Origin: a virus
IMG/VR virus record: IMGVR_UViG_3300045988_039580
Direction: 5' to 3' (one strand)
DNA length: 39,628 nucleotides
Part shown: positions 2,176-39,553 of the stretch, piece after piece
How positions within the stretch are numbered: position 1 is the first letter of the stretch
How the letters are laid out: every line of letters begins with the position of its first letter
Notes under the pieces: model-generated
What the model saw: only the letters and a program-made list of their open reading frames with translations
What the model was told of the DNA's origin: nothing
Database searches by the model: none
Made by a program: the position numbers and the translations under genes

Positions 2176-2181
2176 TGTGTT

Positions 2182-2499
2182 CTACCTCTTTTCACCTATA
2201 TTCTCTAATATTTCCGTGTCTGGAATTGTTCCTCTTTTGTCCTTCTTTAGCTTGTAAAATCCGAAGGCCATATCAACCAAAAGGGCCCAGTAGTAGTCGT
2301 TTAAATCTTTGACGGTTTCTTCGAATTCGTCTTTTGACATACCTGCGTCCTGGTAGTGCCATTGCGAGTCTTGCGTTTTGCTTCTTAGCTGGTATACAAC
2401 TTTTTTCTGTCTGTTGCTCAGCCCTTGTTCTTCGATTAGAAAATGCGCAAAGTCTGGGCGTAGAGGTGTCTGGTATCTTCTATTTATTCTCCTGTTCAT
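2182..2499 (-). CDS. Hypothetical protein, possibly a small HTH/sigma-r4-like regulator
   Basis: 105 aa. GLSNRQKKVVYQL resembles a recognition-helix region. No well-placed SD. The initiation region is the 13-mer AGCAATAGAACAC followed by A then ATG. Confidence 0.55.
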   Translation of the reverse strand: MNRRINRRYQTPLRPDFAHFLIEEQGLSNRQKKVVYQLRSKTQDSQWHYQDAGMSKDEFEETVKDLNDYYWALLVDMAFGFYKLKKDKRGTIPDTEILENIGEKR

Positions 2500-2500
2500 T

Positions 2501-2513
2501 GTGTTCTATTGCT
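2501..2513. repeat. Copy 1 of exact 13-mer GTGTTCTATTGCT (also at 34612..34624 and 36461..36473)
   Basis: Read directly. Abuts the start codon of the 105-aa gene on the minus strand. Confidence 0.9.
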
Positions 2514-16317: not shown

Positions 16318-16638
16318 CTATAATACTTCCGCAATTCCTTTTGCAAGTTTTGCGGCTTTCTGCATCAAGCTGTTTTCTTCTAGGTATTCTAGTCCCTTAA
16401 GGGTTATCCTGATACCCTCTAGCCCTTCAATGTTTGGTGTTTGGTCTCCTATGTATTGGATCACCTGGAAGCCCTCAACGTATCCATTTTTCAGTAGCAT
16501 GCCTAGAAGTGCTTTTCTCTTTGGTTCTGTGATGTCTAGGTTATCCGCTGAAAGTCTTCGGATGTCTACGACCTCATAGTCCATTGATTTCTGCAGAATT
16601 GATAGAATTTTGTATATCGTTCTGAAATCTTCTGACAT
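16318..16638 (-). CDS. YjcQ-family protein (winged-helix-like)
   Basis: 106 aa. ...LLKNGYVEGF...ITLKGLEYLEENSLMQKAAKLAKGI matches my recollection of the YjcQ family. Confidence 0.65.
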   Translation of the reverse strand: MSEDFRTIYKILSILQKSMDYEVVDIRRLSADNLDITEPKRKALLGMLLKNGYVEGFQVIQYIGDQTPNIEGLEGIRITLKGLEYLEENSLMQKAAKLAKGIAEVL

Positions 16639-25341: not shown

Positions 25342-25547
25342 TTCTGGAAGAACTTCTTTTGAAGTTCGCGGTACCGCTCGGCGCAGTCTGGACACAAATC
25401 TTTGTTGTCAATTGTTGTGATCCACCCATCTGGAAGTCCTTTCCAGGTTTCGATTGTTTTTCCGTTCTCGATCTTGCTCTTTTCGATTCCGACTGATGTT
25501 TCTTTTCCGCATCGGTCGCACTTGATATACATTCTATTTTCTTTCAT
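25338..25547 (-). CDS. Zinc-ribbon protein
   Basis: 69 aa with CDRCGK ... CPDC. Confidence 0.7.
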   Translation of the reverse strand: MKENRMYIKCDRCGKETSVGIEKSKIENGKTIETWKGLPDGWITTIDNKDLCPDCAERYRELQKKFFQK

Positions 25548-25550
25548 GTT

Positions 25551-25895
25551 CTATTCCTCCTCTAGTCTTCTTCTTTGTCTTGCTTGTTTTGCTTGAATAA
25601 GTTCTTGAATCTCAGGTCTTTCGATTTGATAATACTCGATAAGCTGATCCATACAAATCAATACATCCGCCATTTCTTCGATCAGGTTATTTCTTAGTCC
25701 TTTGAATTCTAATGGTTTTGTTTTTTCTTCCGGATAGCGTACCAGTTTAGAAATCGCCTTTTGCAGTTCTGATAGTTCTTCCATAGCGACTAGGCTCTGC
25801 CTTTCGATTCCGTATCGGTCCATTGTTTCCTGGTTGACTCTTGCGTCTATTTCTACCATAAAACCTCGATATGTTCTAATGTGATTTCTTTCCAT
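25551..25895 (-). CDS. MazG-like nucleotide pyrophosphohydrolase
   Basis: Start refined to the internal ATG at 25895 (RBS AAAGGAG), giving 114 aa. VAMEELSELQKA and LIEEMADVLICMDQL are the EExxE/D helices of all-alpha NTP-PPases. Confidence 0.75.
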   Translation of the reverse strand: MERNHIRTYRGFMVEIDARVNQETMDRYGIERQSLVAMEELSELQKAISKLVRYPEEKTKPLEFKGLRNNLIEEMADVLICMDQLIEYYQIERPEIQELIQAKQARQRRRLEEE

Positions 25896-31840: not shown

Positions 31841-31972
31841 CTTTCTGTTCCTCCTAGTTTTACTCTTTGTCGCATTACGTTTTTAAGCTGTCGCTTTAGA
31901 TCGTTTCTGTGTGGTCCTGGTTTACTGTTTCGAATCTCGGCTCGGATGCGGACCATCTTTTCATCCAAGTCT

Positions 31973-33109: not shown

Positions 33110-33515
33110 GTAGTGCCTCCCAGGCTTCCTGATATTTCTCTTTAGGAATTTCGCAGATCTTGCTTGCTCCCATCTGAGTTAGTAATACCTTAAGTACGGC
33201 CACTCCCTTTTCTTTGGCAAAATCAACGCCTGCTTTCTGTAGCTCTTCCAATGTGATTTCTTTTGCAGTCTCAGAAACAGGTTCATATTGAGTCGTCCAA
33301 TCTTTGGCCATTGGAATCTTAGTCTCACTTTCTTTTTCTTTATGAGTTGGCGTTTCCTTCGTTGGTACTTCTTCTTCCCATGGAAATGTTTCAGGTTCAG
33401 GCAGTTTTTCCTCTAGTCCTGCGCGCTTTAGGTCTAGCTCCTTGGCTAGCTCCAACACTTTTTTAGCGTCGTCGATTTCGCTTGTTGCGAATTGCAATGT
33501 TAGTTGGTAATGCAT
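33102..33515 (-). CDS. Hypothetical early protein
   Basis: 137 aa. AAGGAGG RBS. Confidence 0.65.
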   Translation of the reverse strand: MHYQLTLQFATSEIDDAKKVLELAKELDLKRAGLEEKLPEPETFPWEEEVPTKETPTHKEKESETKIPMAKDWTTQYEPVSETAKEITLEELQKAGVDFAKEKGVAVLKVLLTQMGASKICEIPKEKYQEAWEALHA

Positions 33516-33739
33516 CTATTTTTCCTCCTTTTTCTTGATCTTTTAGACATTTCTTCTAAGAAAGCTGTTTGAAATGCTTTCATGGCTACTTTTAAAACTT
33601 CATCTCTTTCTTCTTCTGGTACTTTGAACATAGCAAATAGAAGCTTGTCATTTTGCGAGATTCGTTCATATTTAGTACGGATTCCCTTTAATCCTTGAAT
33701 GGGTTCTACTAGGCTTACTTTTATTCTGTATAAATACAA
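33500..33739 (-). CDS. Hypothetical early protein
   Basis: 79 aa. TTG start 5 nt after GGAGGA. Confidence 0.55.
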   Translation of the reverse strand: MYLYRIKVSLVEPIQGLKGIRTKYERISQNDKLLFAMFKVPEEERDEVLKVAMKAFQTAFLEEMSKRSRKRRKNRCITN

Positions 33740-33740
33740 A

Positions 33741-34025
33741 TTAGTCCTCCGTTTCTTCCATTTCTACGACTTCTATGTTTTCGCTTGAATTCACTACCTG
33801 CTGCATAAAATCTTTAAGCATCGCCCTCGCTGCGCTTTTTAGAATAGACAGGTATTCTTCTGGATCAGCATCCATCGTTTCGAGAAAGGCCTGTACCTCG
33901 GCTCTGTGTCCTCTAATCTTTGCTTCCATATACATGCTGTCTTCAGCGTCTGGTGTCAGTACAGCTTCTATTGAGAAAAGCTTAAATTCTTCTCTTGCTG
34001 GTTTTTCTTTTTCAATAGTGATCAT
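33741..34025 (-). CDS. Hypothetical acidic early protein
   Basis: Start refined to the ATG at 34025 (GAGGAGG RBS 7 nt upstream), giving 94 aa. Confidence 0.6.
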   Translation of the reverse strand: MITIEKEKPAREEFKLFSIEAVLTPDAEDSMYMEAKIRGHRAEVQAFLETMDADPEEYLSILKSAARAMLKDFMQQVVNSSENIEVVEMEETED

Positions 34026-34027
34026 GT

Positions 34028-34561
34028 TTAGTCCTCCTCTGTTATTTCGCAATTTGCTAGGATATCTTCAAGTGTTGCATCCCTATCAACGCCCTTGAAA
34101 TACCCCTTTTTTCTCATCTCGGTTAAAGAATTTATATTTTTGAACTGATATTCGGGCGAATAGCCTTGTGAACAGCTTTGTGAACAGCTTTGTAATAAAT
34201 CGATTTCAAAGTTAGTTAGTTTAATTGCGGGTGCTTTATAGGGCTGCTCTATCCATTTTATTGCCTTTTCATGACATCCTTTCGACCGATCTTTGTTAAA
34301 TTCGCAGTCAGAGCATCTAATACGATCACATCGGGTAGGTTTTCCTTTGGCTACCGCTAAATTCCACAGGCAATTTTCTAGAATTTCATGTTTGAAATGA
34401 TCTAGATTAGTTTCCTGATTCTGTTCTTTATACTGTTCTCTATATTGCTTCAATTCCTCTAGCCATTCTGCAAGTTGCTTAAAGTTTTCTCTACAAAGAT
34501 CACCCATGCACTGATCTTCAGATGCCTTTTTTGCGCGGGCAATTAATTCATCTAACGTCAT
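34028..34561 (-). CDS. Hypothetical Cys-rich early protein
   Basis: 177 aa. CDRIRCSDCEF...GCH. Contains a 12-nt tandem duplication encoding SCSQSCSQ. Confidence 0.65.
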   Translation of the reverse strand: MTLDELIARAKKASEDQCMGDLCRENFKQLAEWLEELKQYREQYKEQNQETNLDHFKHEILENCLWNLAVAKGKPTRCDRIRCSDCEFNKDRSKGCHEKAIKWIEQPYKAPAIKLTNFEIDLLQSCSQSCSQGYSPEYQFKNINSLTEMRKKGYFKGVDRDATLEDILANCEITEED

Positions 34562-34577
34562 TCTTTCTTTTTCCTCC

Positions 34578-34605
34578 TTGTATTTTTGAACACGTGCTGT
34601 ATAAT
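34578..34605 (+). promoter_or_regulatory. Plus-strand promoter TTGTAT-16 nt-TATAAT, with the -10 bracketed by inverted repeat GAACACG/CGTGTTC
   Basis: -35 at 34578..34583 and consensus -10 at 34600..34605. Inverted-repeat arms at 34588..34594 and 34611..34617. Confidence 0.5.
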
Positions 34606-34611
34606 ATAAGC

Positions 34612-34667
34612 GTGTTCTATTGCTAGAGCCTTATTCGTTTTCGAACGAGGTCTTCTAGCCTTTTTTT
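34612..34667 (+). ncRNA. Predicted ~56-nt plus-strand small RNA: 5' GUGUUCUAUUGCU seed, extended hairpin with UUCG loop, then U7
   Basis: The expected TSS 7 nt after the -10 coincides with the 13-mer. Hairpin at 34622..34659 followed by TTTTTTT at 34661..34667. No plus-strand gene upstream for this terminator to serve. Confidence 0.45.
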
Positions 34668-34915
34668 ATAGAACGCTCGTAGGATTCTACGATATTCTTT
34701 TGAGTTAGGCCTAGATACTGAATAGCACGTTTGGTCAGGATAACGTTGCTGTCGATATTCTCTAGGCCTTCTTTTTTTATATCTTCCATGATCTCCTGGA
34801 AGATCTTGCTTCCTTTGTTCCTTCCGCAACCTATGAACTTCGATAATTCTGTTTTGTTCATATAACCTTTTTCCATCATCTCGTATCTGTAGGCTGCTAG
34901 GTTTTCTACTTGCAA
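34655..34915 (-). CDS. Small putative DNA-binding (HTH) early protein
   Basis: 86 aa. NKTELSKFIGCGRNKGSKIFQEI looks like an HTH. TTG start after AAGGAGG. Confidence 0.55.
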   Translation of the reverse strand: MQVENLAAYRYEMMEKGYMNKTELSKFIGCGRNKGSKIFQEIMEDIKKEGLENIDSNVILTKRAIQYLGLTQKNIVESYERSIKKG

Positions 34916-34930
34916 AGCTCACCACCTCCT

Positions 34931-35149
34931 TTAAAGCATTTGATAGATCATGATCCAAACCGCTACGATTAGCGATATGATCAGGATTACGAGCGCCATG
35001 TTTAGCGCTGTTACTAGTCCAGATCTGAATTTCTGTTTTCTGATTCTTTTTTGTTCTGCATAGAATGCTTCCAGTCTTAATCGTTCTCCGTGAAGGTTGA
35101 TACCCTCCGCAAAGTCTGGAAGCTCAGCGCCTGTTGTTTTGTGTTCCAT
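34931..35149 (-). CDS. Tail-anchored small membrane protein
   Basis: 72 aa. C-terminal TM LVTALNMALVILIISLIVAVWIMIY. Confidence 0.6.
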   Translation of the reverse strand: MEHKTTGAELPDFAEGINLHGERLRLEAFYAEQKRIRKQKFRSGLVTALNMALVILIISLIVAVWIMIYQML

Positions 35150-35167
35150 TTCTCTTTCTTCCTTTCG

Positions 35168-35176
35168 TGTTACAAT
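35168..35176 (+). promoter_or_regulatory. Extended -10 promoter (TGtTACAAT) for the DUF2513 gene
   Basis: Read directly. Lies about 11 nt upstream of the AAGGAGG RBS. Confidence 0.5.
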
Positions 35177-35200
35177 CTCCTATGAAAGGAGGTTAATCGT

Positions 35201-35569
35201 TTGAAGTTAAATCATGATTTAGTTCGGTTGCTCCTACTTGAGATAGAAGATAAAACCGGACCGTATGATTCTTTAGAAGTCCCTGAAATTTCTATAGCTG
35301 AATATACTGAAGACGAGGTCTTTTATACTGCTGAGCGTCTTTTAGAGGCGGGCTATATCAAGGCCCAACTTGAACCTACACAGATAAGTCACAGCCGATG
35401 TATCTATTCTTTGACTTGGGAAGGTCATAAATATTTGGATATCGTCCGAGATAAAGATGTATGGAAACAAACGCGTATAGTTATTAAAAAGTTTTCGTCT
35501 GTATCCTTCAGCCTTGCTTGCAGAATTGCTGAGCAGATTCTTCTAGATAAAATCAGAGGCACATATTAA
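35201..35569 (+). CDS. DUF2513-family (winged-helix-like) protein
   Basis: 122 aa. N-terminus MKLNHDLVRLLLLEIEDK... and ...LTWEGHKYLD fit the DUF2513 pattern. TTG start 8 nt after AAGGAGG. Confidence 0.65.
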   Translation: MKLNHDLVRLLLLEIEDKTGPYDSLEVPEISIAEYTEDEVFYTAERLLEAGYIKAQLEPTQISHSRCIYSLTWEGHKYLDIVRDKDVWKQTRIVIKKFSSVSFSLACRIAEQILLDKIRGTY

Positions 35570-35597
35570 GGTTCCTATTTTTGGGAATCCTTTTTTT
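35569..35597 (+). terminator. Plus-strand terminator for the DUF2513 gene
   Basis: AGGTTCC-loop-GGAA(T)CCT (one bulge) followed by TTTTTTT. Confidence 0.55.
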
Positions 35598-35712
35598 CTT
35601 TTAGTCCTTTGATAGTTCCCCTAACGGCTCCTATCGCAAGACCGAAAATGATAGGTACTAGGATCATTATTCCCAGTATACTTAGCAATCCGAAAAATAT
35701 ATTTTCCAGCAT
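35575..35712 (-). CDS. Small membrane protein (below the ORF-track cutoff)
   Basis: 45 aa, MLENIFFGLLSILGIMILVPIIFGLAIGAVRGTIKGLKEKKDSQK. Its ATG abuts the upstream stop (TAGATG). Confidence 0.55.
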   Translation of the reverse strand: MLENIFFGLLSILGIMILVPIIFGLAIGAVRGTIKGLKEKKDSQK

Positions 35713-35901
35713 CTACTTCACCTCCTCCTGTTTCTCTGGTTCCTTGGCTGCTGGTGCTGCCAGTGCTGCTGGTGCCGTGTTCATTTGTAGGCCTGTCAGC
35801 ATTCCTTCTAGGAAAGCTCGGGGCTCACCCTTTAGAGCTTTTACGTCGTCCAGTAATAAGTTTGCATTTGCTTTTGCTTTGTTACGATCTTCTATTTTCA
35901 T
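35713..35901 (-). CDS. First early-operon protein, unknown function
   Basis: Start refined to the ATG at 35901 (GAGGTG RBS 9 nt upstream), giving 62 aa. Ala/Pro-rich acidic tail. Confidence 0.6.
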   Translation of the reverse strand: MKIEDRNKAKANANLLLDDVKALKGEPRAFLEGMLTGLQMNTAPAALAAPAAKEPEKQEEVK

Positions 35902-35943
35902 GTTTTCTATCACCTCAACTTTCTATTTTCAAGTTCTGATGCT

Positions 35944-35972
35944 ATATTACTTTACTTTTTAATGTTTGTCAA
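35944..35972 (-). promoter_or_regulatory. Early (lytic) promoter TTGACA-17 nt-TAATAT
   Basis: -35 at 35972..35967 and -10 at 35949..35944 on the minus strand. Divergent from the XRE gene. Confidence 0.65.
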
Positions 35973-35978
35973 CAAAAG

Positions 35979-35995
35979 ACTTTAAATTTTAAAGT
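35979..35995. promoter_or_regulatory. 17-bp perfect palindrome ACTTTAAA-T-TTTAAAGT (operator candidate)
   Basis: Read directly. Lies between the divergent early promoter and the XRE gene. Confidence 0.55.
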
Positions 35996-36028
35996 TTTTA
36001 TATTATACTTTTGTCAGGAGGTAAAAAG

Positions 36029-36382
36029 ATGTTAGGAAATAGAATAAAAGAAATCCGAAAAGGCTTAGGCCTTACAATGAAGGCGTTCGGTAATTCTCTG
36101 GGCTTGTCTGAATCGGCTATTAGTCGAATAGAGTCTGGATCAGCGAACCCGTCCGACGGAATTGTTAAATTGATATGCTCTAAATATCATGTGGATTACT
36201 TCTGGCTAACGGAAGGAATAGGCGAACCATTCCTAGATGATATGGACGCCATAGTAGATGAGCTAGCAGCCGAGAAAGGCTACGATGCTAAAACAGTAGA
36301 ATTGGTAAAAAGGCTCTTTTCTCTTCCAGAGGAACAGTTCAATTTAGTTATGCAAGTTATTGAAAACTTAAAAGACGAGTAA
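36029..36382 (+). CDS. XRE-family HTH repressor
   Basis: Start refined to the ATG at 36029 (AGGAGG RBS), giving 117 aa. IKEIRKGLGLTMKAFGNSLGLSESAISRIESG is a classic HTH_3. Confidence 0.85.
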   Translation: MLGNRIKEIRKGLGLTMKAFGNSLGLSESAISRIESGSANPSDGIVKLICSKYHVDYFWLTEGIGEPFLDDMDAIVDELAAEKGYDAKTVELVKRLFSLPEEQFNLVMQVIENLKDE

Positions 36383-36410
36383 TCCTGTTTAGGTTAGTTA
36401 CTCGTCTTTT
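36371..36410. terminator. Bidirectional intrinsic terminator
   Basis: 12-bp stem AAAGACGAGTAA / TTACTCGTCTTT, flanked by an A-run upstream and a T-run downstream. Confidence 0.7.
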
Positions 36411-36460
36411 ATAAAAAGAAAAACGCAGAACCTGTTTCCAAGTCCTGCATTCTTCCGTGT

Positions 36461-36473
36461 GTGTTCTATTGCT
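36461..36473. repeat. Copy 3 of exact 13-mer GTGTTCTATTGCT
   Basis: Read directly. Followed by a second GTGTTC 7 nt later. Confidence 0.9.
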
Positions 36474-36631
36474 GTGTTCCGTGTCTGATCCAGATTCTTT
36501 GTAGGATTTTATAGGCCTGTTCAAGGCCCTCCTGGTCCATGGTCTGGAGCATGAATTCGATTTTCTTTTTGAGTTCCTCTATCCCATTTCTTTTCCCTTC
36601 TTCCTTAAAAGTTCTTTTCCTAATTGCCTAC

Positions 36632-36660
36632 AGTTTACAGCTACGAACGTATTTTGTCAA
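36632..36660 (-). promoter_or_regulatory. Orphan minus-strand promoter TTGACA-17 nt-TAAACT in the XRE/CI intergenic region
   Basis: Perfect -35 at 36660..36655 and -10 at 36637..36632. It points toward the bidirectional terminator, and no ORF longer than 28 aa lies between them. Confidence 0.55.
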
Positions 36661-36741: not shown

Positions 36742-37362
36742 ATGAGTAAATTGAATGAAGTTTTATCTTCCAAGCTCCCTGAGCTGATGAAAGAGTCTGG
36801 TGTCAGTCGTAGAGATTTGGCCGAGTATTGTGGCGTTTCTTATAACACTGTACGGTGTTGGGAGGTTGGCACTAAAGCACCAAGGCCAGATATGGTTGTA
36901 AAAATTGCAGAGCGCTTCAACCTGAAACCTTTTGATCTGATGAGCGCGGCCTTTGAAGATTCTGCAGTAAGGCCCGTTCGTTTTCTGTCCCTGGTTGACG
37001 AGGACGGGTCTGTATCTAAGTCGAATAGCTCGTCAGTCTTCACTTCTACGGCTACAGATGTTACAGCGGATTATATTTATGTTATGCCCGATGAAACTAT
37101 GTATAAGGCGGATATTATCAAGGGCGACATCTGCCTGATCCGTGCCACAGGTGCTATTCGTGCTGGTGTGCCTATGCTAGTAAAATATCAAGGTAAAGCT
37201 ATGCTGCGCTTTATTATTACGCATAACGAAACGAATCAGATTGCTTTACGTACTGCCAGTCCGTATGCGATTGGGACTCTCTTCTCAACGTCCGACTTTC
37301 ATGATCAGGTTCAAGTGTTGGGCGTTTTAGTCGCTTTTCGTAGAAATTATAAAAGAAGGTAA
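36742..37362 (+). CDS. CI/LexA-like repressor: N-terminal HTH plus C-terminal S24-like domain with substituted catalytic dyad
   Basis: 206 aa. HTH VSRRDLAEYCGVSYNTVRCWEVG. S24-like YVMPDETMYKADIIKGD...GKAMLRFI, with Thr119 and Arg156 where Ser and Lys are expected. Confidence 0.75.
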   Translation: MSKLNEVLSSKLPELMKESGVSRRDLAEYCGVSYNTVRCWEVGTKAPRPDMVVKIAERFNLKPFDLMSAAFEDSAVRPVRFLSLVDEDGSVSKSNSSSVFTSTATDVTADYIYVMPDETMYKADIIKGDICLIRATGAIRAGVPMLVKYQGKAMLRFIITHNETNQIALRTASPYAIGTLFSTSDFHDQVQVLGVLVAFRRNYKRR

Positions 37363-37368
37363 TCTCCT

Positions 37369-38475
37369 ATGGCTCAGCAAAAGGACACAAAAAGGGGAAC
37401 CTGGATGTTCTATGGTTCCTGTAAAGATATTACCGGAAAGACTCAGCGATATTGTCGTCGAGGTTTCAAAACAAAAAAGGAAGCAAAAGAAGCCGAGTTT
37501 GCCTTCCGTCTGGAAATGACTACCGCTCGGCCTTCTATAACCTTAAATGAAATGTTTCAGGTATACTGCAAAAACGCAGAGAATATGTCCGTAAAAGGAT
37601 CCACTCTCTATACGCACGAACATACTTATAGAAATCACATCCAGGATGATTTGGGAAGCTTGAAGCTTACGGCGCTTACGACTCCCGTTCTGGATCAGTG
37701 GAGAAACCGTCTGCTTCAAAAGAAAAAACCAAACGGTCAGCTTTATGCAGCCCCCACTTTAAATGGCATTTTAGATACACTTTCCGTTATTCTTTCCTAT
37801 TCCGTTAGACTTGGATATCTTGAAGTCAACCCGTGCAGATCTTTGCCTATCGTGAAAGATAAACGGAACCTGAAGGACCAGAGTCTGTTATTCTGGGAGC
37901 AGGAAACCTTTACTTATTTTATATCCTGCGTGGACGACCCGTATTGGCGTGATGTCTTTATGTTTATGTATGGCACTGGTGTCCGTAAATCTGAAATGTT
38001 TGCCCTCCAATGGTCGGATGTTGATCTAGGCAGAGGCCGGGTGCATATTTCAAAAACATTAACTATAAAAACAGAATCGGCTCCGTGGGAGATTACTCCA
38101 CCTAAATCTAAAAACTCAAACAGATATATTGATCTACAGGATACCCTTCTAGATTGCCTAAGGCGTCGCTATAGCGAGCAACAAAAGAAGGACGGGTTCT
38201 CGTCCTCCTGGTTTGTGTTTGGCCATATAAAGCCACTTCTGGCGCCCAGACTGGCTGTTGCTTTGAAGAGATATATCCAGGCTGCTGGTGTTCCGCCTAT
38301 CTCCCCTCATGGCTTTAGACACTCTCATGCGACTCTGCTGATTCGTGCCGGTGTAGATGATCAGCTGATCGCAGAAAGGCTAGGGCACTCTGTTAGTGAA
38401 TTAAGAAAAACTTATGCGCATATATACTCCGAATCTAGGCGTGAAATGCTGGATAAATTGAACAAAATTTTATAA
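37369..38475 (+). CDS. int: Tyrosine integrase
   Basis: 368 aa. ...GVRKSEMFALQWSDV..., HGFRHSHATLL, LGHSVSELRKTYAHIY (R-H-R-Y catalytic set). Confidence 0.95.
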   Translation: MAQQKDTKRGTWMFYGSCKDITGKTQRYCRRGFKTKKEAKEAEFAFRLEMTTARPSITLNEMFQVYCKNAENMSVKGSTLYTHEHTYRNHIQDDLGSLKLTALTTPVLDQWRNRLLQKKKPNGQLYAAPTLNGILDTLSVILSYSVRLGYLEVNPCRSLPIVKDKRNLKDQSLLFWEQETFTYFISCVDDPYWRDVFMFMYGTGVRKSEMFALQWSDVDLGRGRVHISKTLTIKTESAPWEITPPKSKNSNRYIDLQDTLLDCLRRRYSEQQKKDGFSSSWFVFGHIKPLLAPRLAVALKRYIQAAGVPPISPHGFRHSHATLLIRAGVDDQLIAERLGHSVSELRKTYAHIYSESRREMLDKLNKIL

Positions 38476-38694: not shown

Positions 38695-38889
38695 CTACTC
38701 GGCCTCTTTCTTTTGTCGTTCTATGTCTTCCCTGATCAGGTCTTTTAGATATCTGTTGACGCTCTCCTTTGTTCCTAGATATTCCAGAATGTCTGCGTCA
38801 TGTTTTAGATGAAGCCTGAAGGTCTTGATCTTGTAAGTTTTATCGCTCCATTTTTGATTTGCTCTTTTTCTTGCCTCTGATACTGCCAT
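38695..38889 (-). CDS. Ribbon-helix-helix (Arc/CopG-like) DNA-binding protein
   Basis: 64 aa. KTYKIKTFRLHLKHDADILEYLGTKESVNRYLKDLIREDIE fits a strand-helix-helix layout. GAGGAG RBS. Confidence 0.65.
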   Translation of the reverse strand: MAVSEARKRANQKWSDKTYKIKTFRLHLKHDADILEYLGTKESVNRYLKDLIREDIERQKKEAE

Positions 38890-38912
38890 GTGTTCTATCT
38901 CCTCTACTCTTA

Positions 38913-39140
38913 TTATATATTTAGCATCTGGATCATTTCAACTTCTTCTTGTAACCCCTCGATATTCTCGAGGGCTCTTTGTGCTGTGTCTACTGCTTCT
39001 CGAACTGTGTCCCAGTCTTCTCCTTCAGGTTCATTGTTTAGAATGTTTACAGCTTCCGCTATGGCTTCTTTGTATGTACTTTGTATCCACTCTATTTCCT
39101 TTTTTCTACGATCCAATAAATCTTTTGTAATAGCATCCAT
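38913..39140 (-). CDS. Small acidic helical protein, unknown function
   Basis: 75 aa. Tightly packed in the operon. Confidence 0.6.
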   Translation of the reverse strand: MDAITKDLLDRRKKEIEWIQSTYKEAIAEAVNILNNEPEGEDWDTVREAVDTAQRALENIEGLQEEVEMIQMLNI

Positions 39141-39143
39141 GTT

Positions 39144-39305
39144 CTATTCCTCTATTATTTCCATGATTACGTCCAAGGCGTCTTCATCGCAATTGTGCTT
39201 GTATAGCCAGCTTTCTATTTCTTTTAGAGTCATCATGTGTCTATCGTAATACAATTGATCCAGCACTTCTTCCTTTAGTCTCATTGCTGCTTCTTCTCTA
39301 GTCAT
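39144..39305 (-). CDS. Small acidic protein (below the ORF-track cutoff)
   Basis: 53 aa, MTREEAAMRLKEEVLDQLYYDRHMMTLKEIESWLYKHNCDEDALDVIMEIIEE. Exactly fills the gap between neighbours (1-nt and 3-nt spacers). Confidence 0.55.
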   Translation of the reverse strand: MTREEAAMRLKEEVLDQLYYDRHMMTLKEIESWLYKHNCDEDALDVIMEIIEE

Positions 39306-39306
39306 A

Positions 39307-39528
39307 TTAAGCTTCCTCCTGTAGTGTTCTAATTTGGCGTTGTGATTCTTGAATCAATGTTTCATATACGTCTGCTTCGTAAGCTAATTTTCTGATTTTT
39401 CCGAAGTCAATGTCTCTTTCTTCTCTTTCGATTGCGTTTAGTTCGTATTGAATTTCCTTTGCGATTCTTGTTTGTTCTTCAATCCAGTTTTGAATTCTAG
39501 TTTCTAGTGTTTCGATTTCTGTTTTCAT
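39307..39528 (-). CDS. Small coiled-coil protein, unknown function
   Basis: 73 aa. First gene after the promoter in the terminal repeat. Confidence 0.6.
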   Translation of the reverse strand: MKTEIETLETRIQNWIEEQTRIAKEIQYELNAIEREERDIDFGKIRKLAYEADVYETLIQESQRQIRTLQEEA

Positions 39529-39553
39529 TGTGTTCTATCTCTCTTTCTTTTTA

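Follow-up and report, generated by a model that had tools for sequence, protein, structure and literature searches.

A predicted antisense RNA gene within the early operon of a temperate phage genome and its co-varying partner site in the immunity region

A short plus-strand unit within the early operon

The window, which is the whole 39,628-nucleotide (nt) stretch of IMG/VR virus record IMGVR_UViG_3300045988_039580, corresponds to a temperate siphophage-like genome of about 39.6 kilobases (kb) with nearly all genes on the minus strand. In its early operon, between the minus-strand genes of an 86-amino-acid (86-aa) protein (34655-34915) and of a 177-aa protein (34028-34561), the plus strand carries a predicted gene for a small RNA (sRNA) of about 56 nt (34578-34667). 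A sequence-only reading of the window had proposed this unit. The elements that it listed, namely TTGTAT-16-TATAAT, a 13-mer, a hairpin, a T7 run and an inverted repeat, were all found on the plus strand at the positions given below. Long open reading frames (ORFs) located between 85 and 34561 are on the minus strand only, in agreement with the remark that no plus-strand gene lies upstream of the unit over a long distance.

The unit begins with a -35-like hexamer, TTGTAT (34578-34583, plus strand), of which only TTG fits the consensus (3/6). This hexamer overlaps the Shine-Dalgarno (SD) region of the 177-aa gene on the opposite strand. After a 16-nt spacer comes a consensus -10 hexamer, TATAAT (34600-34605, plus strand), which would be a poor -10 element, ATTATA, if read on the minus strand. 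Transcription is predicted to start at about 34610-34612. The 5' end of the predicted RNA contains the seed GTGTTCTATTGCT (GUGUUCUAUUGCU), at 34612-34624 on the plus strand, the first 10 nt of which are unpaired in the fold. The seed is followed by the terminator hairpin (34622-34659) and by a U-tract, T7 (34661-34667), where the RNA is predicted to end and which overlaps the last lysine codons of the 86-aa gene. The whole predicted sRNA, about 56 nt at 34611-34667 on the plus strand, has a sole copy in the window, as judged with a covariance model, R1, described below.

Folding of the 56-nt RNA gives ten free 5' nucleotides and one hairpin, at -17.3 kcal/mol (z = -3.85; 1 of 200 shuffled sequences was as good). 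The 38-nt hairpin alone has an energy of -16.5 kcal/mol on the plus strand and of -15.3 kcal/mol on the minus strand. A UUCG tetraloop had been proposed for it. The hairpin itself stands, but this loop register is not the predicted optimum: the minimum-energy fold has a UUUU loop closed by UUCG/CGAA, the UUCG loop being an alternative. True C(UUCG)G loops are present in the version of the unit found in lineage L082 (see below). A promoter and terminator reading of the same region on the minus strand was rejected, as inspection gave no acceptable -35/-10 pair and no U-run follows the hairpin on that strand.

The predicted RNA, ending at 34667, overlaps the last 13 or so nucleotides of the 86-aa gene in antisense orientation, and is therefore fully complementary to the early messenger RNA (mRNA) at this place. 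The same arrangement is seen in all versions of the unit. The 86-aa gene uses a TTG start and its stop codon is at 34655-34657 (minus strand). Its 20 N-terminal residues are conserved, so that TTG can be taken as the real start. The AlphaFold model of the 86-aa protein has a predicted local distance difference test (pLDDT) score of 85.6. Searching the PDB with this model gave no significant match; winged helix-turn-helix (HTH) regulators are at the top of the non-significant list. The protein has no Pfam match, and a single weak PHROG family of unknown function was found.

Conservation of the unit in diverged lineages

Relatives were collected from IMG/VR, 15 via the 177-aa protein and 38 via the 86-aa protein, and all of them carry the block. 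Region 34558-34681 is invariant in 14 relatives, and its flanks are 72-94% identical. Among 36 loci, the block shows two single substitutions and one extra A, although the genes that follow it are of at least five kinds. An island of 146 nt around the unit (34557-34702) is the longest stretch of the genome that is free of any change among five full-length relatives. The 177-aa gene downstream of the unit (34028-34561, minus strand) occupies a mosaic position, which varies among relatives.

Further lineages were reached via homologues of the 86-aa protein at 42-66% identity. Eight diverged versions of the unit could be compared, those of the window, L068, L079/80, L081, L082, L083, L084 and the L143 type, with 86-aa proteins that are 46-66% identical. 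They differ throughout the spacer, the hairpin interior and the flanks. All eight have TATAAT, then 5-6 nt, a free 5' end starting with (GU)GUGUU, a hairpin with an energy between -14.8 and -18.3 kcal/mol, and U5-8, and in all of them the unit is read against the 86-aa gene. The length of the predicted RNA ranges from 45 to 67 nt. The short plus-strand unit described by the sequence-only reading, with its promoter, free 5' seed, terminator hairpin and U-tract, is thus kept in diverged genomes, with compensatory changes in the hairpin.

TATAAT is invariant in the eight versions and also in the remote lineages L085, L078 and L155, in the midst of flanks that differ. A TTGnnn -35 element is found in the window, L068, L079 and L083, and an extended -10 element, TGnTATAAT, is found instead in L081, L082, L084 and the L143 type, where it reads TGTGnTATAAT in the latter. 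By inspection, this exchange looks like the trade-off expected of a real sigma-A promoter.

The RNAalifold consensus of a 7-sequence alignment contains 14 base pairs, 10 of which show compensatory changes. The hairpin is at least as stable on the plus strand as on the minus strand in 7/7 versions, with 9 G.U pairs on the plus strand versus 2 on the minus strand. It is followed by T5-T8 in every version. The U-tract exists on the plus strand only, and the A-run facing it is non-coding on the opposite strand in several lineages. In the window, covariance model R1 matches the unit at 57.1 bits (E = 2.8e-10), the next match being at 14.5 bits. Across relatives, the model detects a single copy in 49 of 55 loci, each time on the strand opposite to the 86-aa gene.

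The remote lineages L085, L078 and L155 show TGnTATAAT, a free 5' end, and a hairpin with a U-run over the 3' end of the homologue of the 86-aa gene. Because the layout is kept in such remote homologues, including genomes with other replication modules, the unit belongs with the 86-aa gene family. The TGnTATAAT promoter pointing towards the 3' end of the remote homologue was observed at L085:5240-5300, L078:3140-3200 and L086:3230-3290 and in L155. The seeds of these four remote versions differ from those of the other lineages.

At the end of one contig (L005 / G006; L005:1-198), the promoter is kept up to TATAAT and is followed by an unrelated body of about 70 nt with a hairpin and T6, on the same strand. 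This junction may reflect a natural exchange of the RNA body, or else an assembly artefact at the contig end. No targets were found in its 34.6 kb, which miss the immunity region, and the contig was treated as uninformative. Pattern scans of viral contigs for variant junctions returned only L005 or chance matches inside coding regions.

The inverted repeat GAACACG (34588-34594) / CGTGTTC (34611-34617), which brackets the -10 hexamer, had been put forward as a possible operator. It is present here, and it is not conserved outside the lineage of the window. A conserved operator repeat was rejected, as other lineages have different inverted repeats around the -10 hexamer, or none. At the same place, L081 has CCTACAT/ATGTAGG, L068 has TAGAT/ATCTA, and L082 has CCUCAU/AUGGGG, with a G.U pair on the minus strand only. 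L083 and L084 show no clear inverted repeat there. On the minus-strand mRNA, the repeat GAACACG...CGUGUUC (34588-34617) could fold and hide the seed-complementary word (site B, see below) that lies upstream of the SD sequence of the 177-aa gene.

A co-varying site in the immunity region

The 13-nt seed occurs exactly at 2501, 34612 and 36461, each time on the plus strand. Allowing up to 2 mismatches, 11 matches are found versus 1.76 expected, a number reached by 0 of 100 shuffled sequences. The 8-mer GTGTTCTA has 10 copies, all on the plus strand, versus 1.5 expected. The exact complements that had been noted at 2501-2513 and 36461-36473 were recovered, each over the full 13 nt. Read on the minus strand, the complements at 2501, 34612 and 36461 are called sites A, B and C, site B being on the early mRNA opposite the RNA gene itself. 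When the 13-nt seed was scanned for duplexes along the entire sense strand, the best positions, at -20.2 kcal/mol, were sites C, A and B, with a gap before the next ones.

Site C, AGCAAUAGAACAC on the minus-strand RNA (36461-36473; -20.2 kcal/mol), is the predicted conserved target in trans. It covers the last sense codon and the stop codon (36468-36466) of a small ORF of the immunity region (36466-36588, minus strand; protein end ...NGIEELKKKIEFMLQTMDQEGLEQAYKILQRIWIRHGTQQ*), and a terminator is located 4 nt further. The sense-strand word complementary to the 5' end of the predicted RNA recurs once more, at the 3' end of this small ORF, in every lineage with a readable immunity region. Site C is located 1.8-2.5 kb from the RNA gene across lineages.

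The RNA 5' ends fall into six seed classes, each of which matches its own site C. In the window, the shared word is AGCAAUAGAACAC (full listing AGCAATAGAACAC). L068 and L083 have a class word in common, AAUUAGAACAC, within the shared words AATTAGAACAC in L068 and CTCTAGCACAA(A)TTAGAACACA in L083. The word is TAGCAGAACAC in L079/80 (class word for L079, UAGCAGAACAC) and GCGTCAGAACAC in L081 (class word GCGUCAGAACAC). L082 and L084 make up one class, GCACCAGAACACACA, which is also the shared word of L082; that of L084 is GCACCAG(A/G)ACACACA. In the L143 type the word is AGCACAAACACAC, and the core itself is changed at both sites. The identity between seed and site C always begins 5-6 nt past the -10 hexamer, that is, at the predicted 5' end.

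To compare seeds and sites C we used exact-identity extension, which replaced an energy matrix of whole 26-nt duplexes because (GU)n/(AC)n runs distorted the latter. Outside the common core, the shared identity amounts to 4-6 nt in cognate pairs and to 0-1 nt in non-cognate ones. In a permutation test, the observed sum was equalled by 4 of 5040 arrangements, which just swap lineages with the same seed. This co-variation in six seed classes backs the match that the sequence-only reading had noticed in what it called an orphan transcript. Among 73 loci of the window's lineage, the words at the two places are identical in 68, and an A-to-G change in site C is seen in 5. L084 shows the same change. 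It is the only mismatch seen, and it would keep pairing as G.U with a plus-strand RNA, versus A.C in the opposite sense.

The supposed orphan unit encodes, across lineages, a conserved protein of 43-70 aa (...NGI.E.I.FM...M..EGLE.AY.I.QR.W.RH...). The small ORF is located between a cI-like gene and a second HTH gene. Its promoter, TTGACA-17-TAAACT (36632-36660, minus strand), diverges from the cI-like gene; TTGACA is kept in other lineages, with TTTACA in L081. The intrinsic terminator of the unit is at 36417-36456 (minus strand). In L068, L079, L080 and L084, A-run and T-run flanks make it bidirectional. Plus-strand read-through from the HTH gene was considered as a pairing partner of site B and rejected as unlikely, because in these four lineages the bidirectional terminator at site C would stop such transcripts before the word.

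The product of the small ORF is charged and helical (NGIEELKKKIEFMLQTMDQEGLEQAYKILQRIWIRHGTQQ), and inspection of the sequence reveals no hydrophobic segment. No Pfam or PHROG family was found for it. Its C-terminal tail, where site C is located, varies at the protein level, which fits a constraint on RNA rather than on protein. Being divergent from a LexA/cI-like gene, the small ORF may reasonably be guessed to encode an antirepressor-like or Cro-like protein. In most lineages, including L079, L081, L082 and L084, it has a normal SD-ATG start. In the window and L083, the SD-proximal ATG (36587-36585 in the window) is one base out of frame (ATG GGA TAG), and in the window the conserved frame has no ATG, GTG or TTG before an internal ATG at 36552. 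An unusual start, a frameshift or decay of the gene are possible.

Matches at translation initiation regions

Six initiation regions of the window have a complement of the seed in the spacer between SD and AUG, on the sense (minus) strand. They belong to the genes starting at 2499, 2175, 38889, 39528, 39140 and 25547, and the complement extends over 13 nt at 2499, over 9 nt at 39528 and 38889 and over 8 nt at 2175.

The longest match is site A (2501-2513, minus strand), which is complementary to the seed over 13 nt without mismatch and occupies positions -14 to -2 of the 105-aa gene (ATG at 2499). Its duplex energy is -20.2 kcal/mol. This gene comes directly after the endolysin gene, and site A is kept in five full relatives. 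UAGAACAC (2177-2184, minus strand) is located between SD and ATG of the gene at 2175, and its UAG serves as stop codon for the 105-aa gene. AUAGAACAC is found immediately before the ATG at 38889 (38890-38898, minus strand), in an initiation region that differs in some relatives, and before the ATG at 39528 (39530-39538, minus strand). Two regions are additions to the list of the sequence-only reading: AAUAGAACA overlaps the ATG at 39140 (39140-39148, minus strand) and that at 25547 (25547-25555, minus strand). In the duplex scan, the initiation regions 39528, 38889, 39140, 25547 and 2175 range from -13.6 to -14.2 kcal/mol, within the top 16.

The matched genes are those of a cassette after the endolysin gene (2499, 2175), of an accessory cassette near attP (39528, 39140, 38889) and one middle gene (25547). 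In L084, three initiation regions (AGAACACACA, 0-2 nt, ATG) match the 5'-extended seed of that lineage. The proposed pairing with initiation regions is therefore borne out for the window as such and does not extend to conservation across lineages, each match being lineage-specific. Control of these initiation regions by the RNA is plausible.

In the word TAGAACAC, the TAG is the stop codon of the upstream ORF at 2182-2184, 16318-16320, 36466-36468 and 39535-39537, and the word thus spans stop-to-start junctions.

Interpretation and alternatives

We propose, with a probability of roughly 0.7, that 34578-34667 on the plus strand is the gene of a regulatory RNA of about 56 nt, OOP-like in its position, which would also act in trans on the small-ORF mRNA. 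Comparison of the lineages at the sequence level establishes the layout, strand and structure of the unit and the co-evolution of its seed with site C. We infer the production of the RNA, the sign and mechanism of the regulation and the role of the small ORF.

A host-type promoter would drive the RNA against the early lytic operon. The 5' end of the RNA would pair in trans with the small-ORF mRNA (36461-36473), over its last codons and stop codon, just before the terminator. In a lysogen, the RNA would be free for the small-ORF mRNA and for the initiation regions because the early operon is proposed to be silent. There it may lower the expression of its targets, either because it blocks the ribosome site or because cleavage directed by the duplex cuts off the 3' hairpin. 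When the early operon is switched on, the RNA would be removed by convergent transcription and by titration with the fully complementary early mRNA (about 56 nt), and its targets would be freed.

A bolder and more tentative possibility is that the RNA and site C form an RNA-coded specificity pair, with six interchangeable "alleles" that would set immunity groups, as c4 does in P1/P7. The early mRNA, which has this word inside its fully complementary stretch, would then act as a built-in sponge that flips the circuit at the onset of lytic transcription and releases a set of accessory genes with the word at their ribosome sites.

Several observations weigh against the proposed regulatory RNA. 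A consensus scan called neither the promoter nor the bulged terminator hairpin. The promoter was missed because its -35 element matches only TTG, and this weak element (3/6) also counts as a point in itself. Searched with Rfam, the window gives no match at or above the gathering score of any family. A permissive Rfam search of 34400-34800 gave noise only, the best sub-threshold match being an unrelated Burkholderia sRNA (E = 0.22). Pairing in trans would be short (11-15 nt) and, in some lineages, partly inside the hairpin stem, and sequence does not tell what pairing at the 3' end of an ORF would do. As for the initiation regions, the match at 38889 is lost in some close relatives, and the readable parts of L079, L080, L082 and L068 have no such matches. 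Because the parts read from these four lineages are without them and those of L084 follow its own seed, targeting of initiation regions looks like a recurrent, lineage-specific add-on to the conserved link between seed and site C. Finally, it might in principle be a sequence-specific protein, and not an RNA, that requires sites B and C to be identical.

The last point leads to an alternative in which no antisense RNA exists and the repeated word is a recognition box on the sense strand, that is, a nut/put-like antitermination signal or the site of a lineage-specific DNA- or RNA-binding protein. One copy would act in the early operon and one in the small-ORF unit, as with the lambda nutL/nutR box, which co-varies with N. 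Such a box would agree with the location of all copies on the sense strand, of site B after the first early genes and of site C just before a terminator, and with the co-variation of the word between lineages whose neighbouring small proteins differ too. We nevertheless consider it improbable. It leaves unexplained the unchanging TATAAT, whose distance from the edge of the word is fixed at 5-6 nt, the swap between -35 and extended -10 elements, the U-tract found only on the opposite strand over non-coding A-runs, and the G.U pairs that favour this opposite strand. Moreover, sites B and C share a linear word only, with no common hairpin, and this word is neither palindromic nor iterated, unlike the usual sites of dimeric HTH proteins. 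The mismatches observed are precisely those that G.U pairing tolerates.

The RNA may also be real and act in cis only, as OOP does on cII in lambda. It would then base-pair with the early mRNA along the intergenic region and the 3' end of the 86-aa gene, causing cleavage or transcription interference, and the distant matches would have no regulatory role. The overlap with the 3' end of the 86-aa gene in every version, the tie of the unit to the 86-aa family even in genomes with other replication modules (L085, L086) and other seeds, and the fact that the initiation-region matches are not conserved between lineages all speak for this possibility. Under it, site C would have no cause to follow the seed, yet six seed classes match their own site C at 1.8-2.5 kb, with a word starting at the predicted 5' end, and a role restricted to cis thus appears unlikely. 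Finally, the block might be a "linker" at a mosaic boundary, kept identical by phage recombination and combined with an insulating terminator, with incidental promoter and seed features. Conservation indeed ends exactly where different downstream genes start, and the L005 contig breaks straight after TATAAT. However, lineages that share neither hairpin nor spacer sequence keep the parts, their order, their strand and the compensatory pairs, and recombination cannot hold a word of 11-15 nt identical at two sites 2 kb apart and yet different between lineages. We regard the linker as very improbable.

Relation to known antisense RNAs

The predicted regulatory RNA resembles several phage antisense RNAs. 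The OOP RNA of lambda is 77 nt long and overlaps cII. It pairs with cII mRNA and promotes its RNase III-dependent decay (PMC12197685). As with the pO-oop-tO unit, we predict from sequence a short RNA that has its own promoter and intrinsic terminator, directed against an early operon (the rightward one in lambda). In both cases the start falls into the gap behind a small early regulator gene, whose 3' end is overlapped; the 86-aa gene has this position here. Unlike OOP, the predicted RNA overlaps the upstream gene by no more than about 13 nt, and the 86-aa protein is at most a candidate counterpart of cII. The two RNAs have no sequence or Rfam relationship. To our knowledge, no co-evolving trans site in the immunity region is known for OOP.

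The c4 RNA is processed from the transcript and strand of its own target, and pairs via loops near the ribosome site of the target. This antisense RNA blocks a lysis-lysogeny gene by short specific pairing, and matched differences in RNA and target give P1/P7 heteroimmunity (PMC12197685). The six seed/target classes found here parallel these matched differences. Unlike c4, the RNA described here is predicted to lie on the opposite strand with its own convergent promoter rather than to be processed from the target transcript. Pairing would involve its 5' end and a conserved site located where the small ORF ends, and the window has no match to the C4 covariance model of Rfam.

In P22, the small antisense RNA sar of the sar/ant system is encoded in a phage regulatory operon and limits antirepressor synthesis (PMC12197685). 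The location of a small antisense RNA within a phage regulatory operon is common to both cases. However, sar is purely cis-antisense to the initiation region of ant, the window has no corresponding Rfam match, and the small ORF is only guessed to be antirepressor-like.

In type I systems of Firmicutes prophages (for example SR4/bsrG and RatA/txpA), the antitoxin is a small RNA that anneals to the 3' end of the mRNA of a small ORF and hastens the decay of that mRNA. Pairing at such a 3' end is also predicted here. The type I partners are convergent and at the same locus, whereas the RNA gene described here is about 1.8 kb from the small ORF. In addition, type I toxins are hydrophobic membrane peptides, whereas the small protein of the immunity region is charged and helical, with no membrane segment.

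The RNA would thus represent a predicted new sRNA family of the OOP/sar/c4-like kind, and its co-varying target in the immunity region sets it apart from the familiar OOP-like kind. Nearly all known regulatory RNAs of temperate phages come from enterobacterial models (OOP, sar, c4, P4 CI). If the proposal is correct, the family is widespread in temperate phages of human-gut Firmicutes, with more than 100 metagenomic loci. It would tie the early lytic operon, via a protein of 40-70 aa, to a second switch unit under LexA/cI-like control, and thereby bear on the decision between lysogeny and lysis in these gut phages. The target is defined by co-variation rather than by guesswork, and the six seed/target classes are a ready-made natural test of whether immunity specificity is RNA-based. 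The covariance model also gives annotators a means of finding an element that gene callers overlook.

Genome context

To the right of the RNA gene, the plus strand carries a DUF2513 gene (35201-35569), the gene of a second HTH protein, HTH_3 (36011-36382), that of a cI/LexA-like repressor with HTH and S24-like domains (36742-37362), and the integrase gene (37369-38475). The layout in relatives comprises the integrase and cI-like genes, a gap with the small rightward unit, the second HTH gene and the divergent early operon.

Megablast of 33500-36600 against named phages gave zero matches. The PolA protein is at most 45% identical to those of phages of gut Clostridia. Scanning genome contigs with the 177-aa protein gave just two distant, partial matches and no host assignment. 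Pfam, PHROGs and fold searches gave no function for the small-ORF, 86-aa or 72-aa proteins.

The true early lytic promoter is probably TTGACA-17-TAATAT (35972-35944, minus strand). Small genes of 66 aa and 45 aa come after it on the minus strand (region 35575-35913), and a 117-aa plus-strand ORF at 35609-35962 is probably spurious. The DUF2513 gene is a variable insert in the opposite orientation, and many relatives are without it. Another conserved stretch, of 76 nt (31881-31956), is located at the boundary between the genes of a DUF2800 protein and of a single-stranded-DNA-binding protein. It is invariant in five full relatives and 100% identical in 15 of 15 loci.

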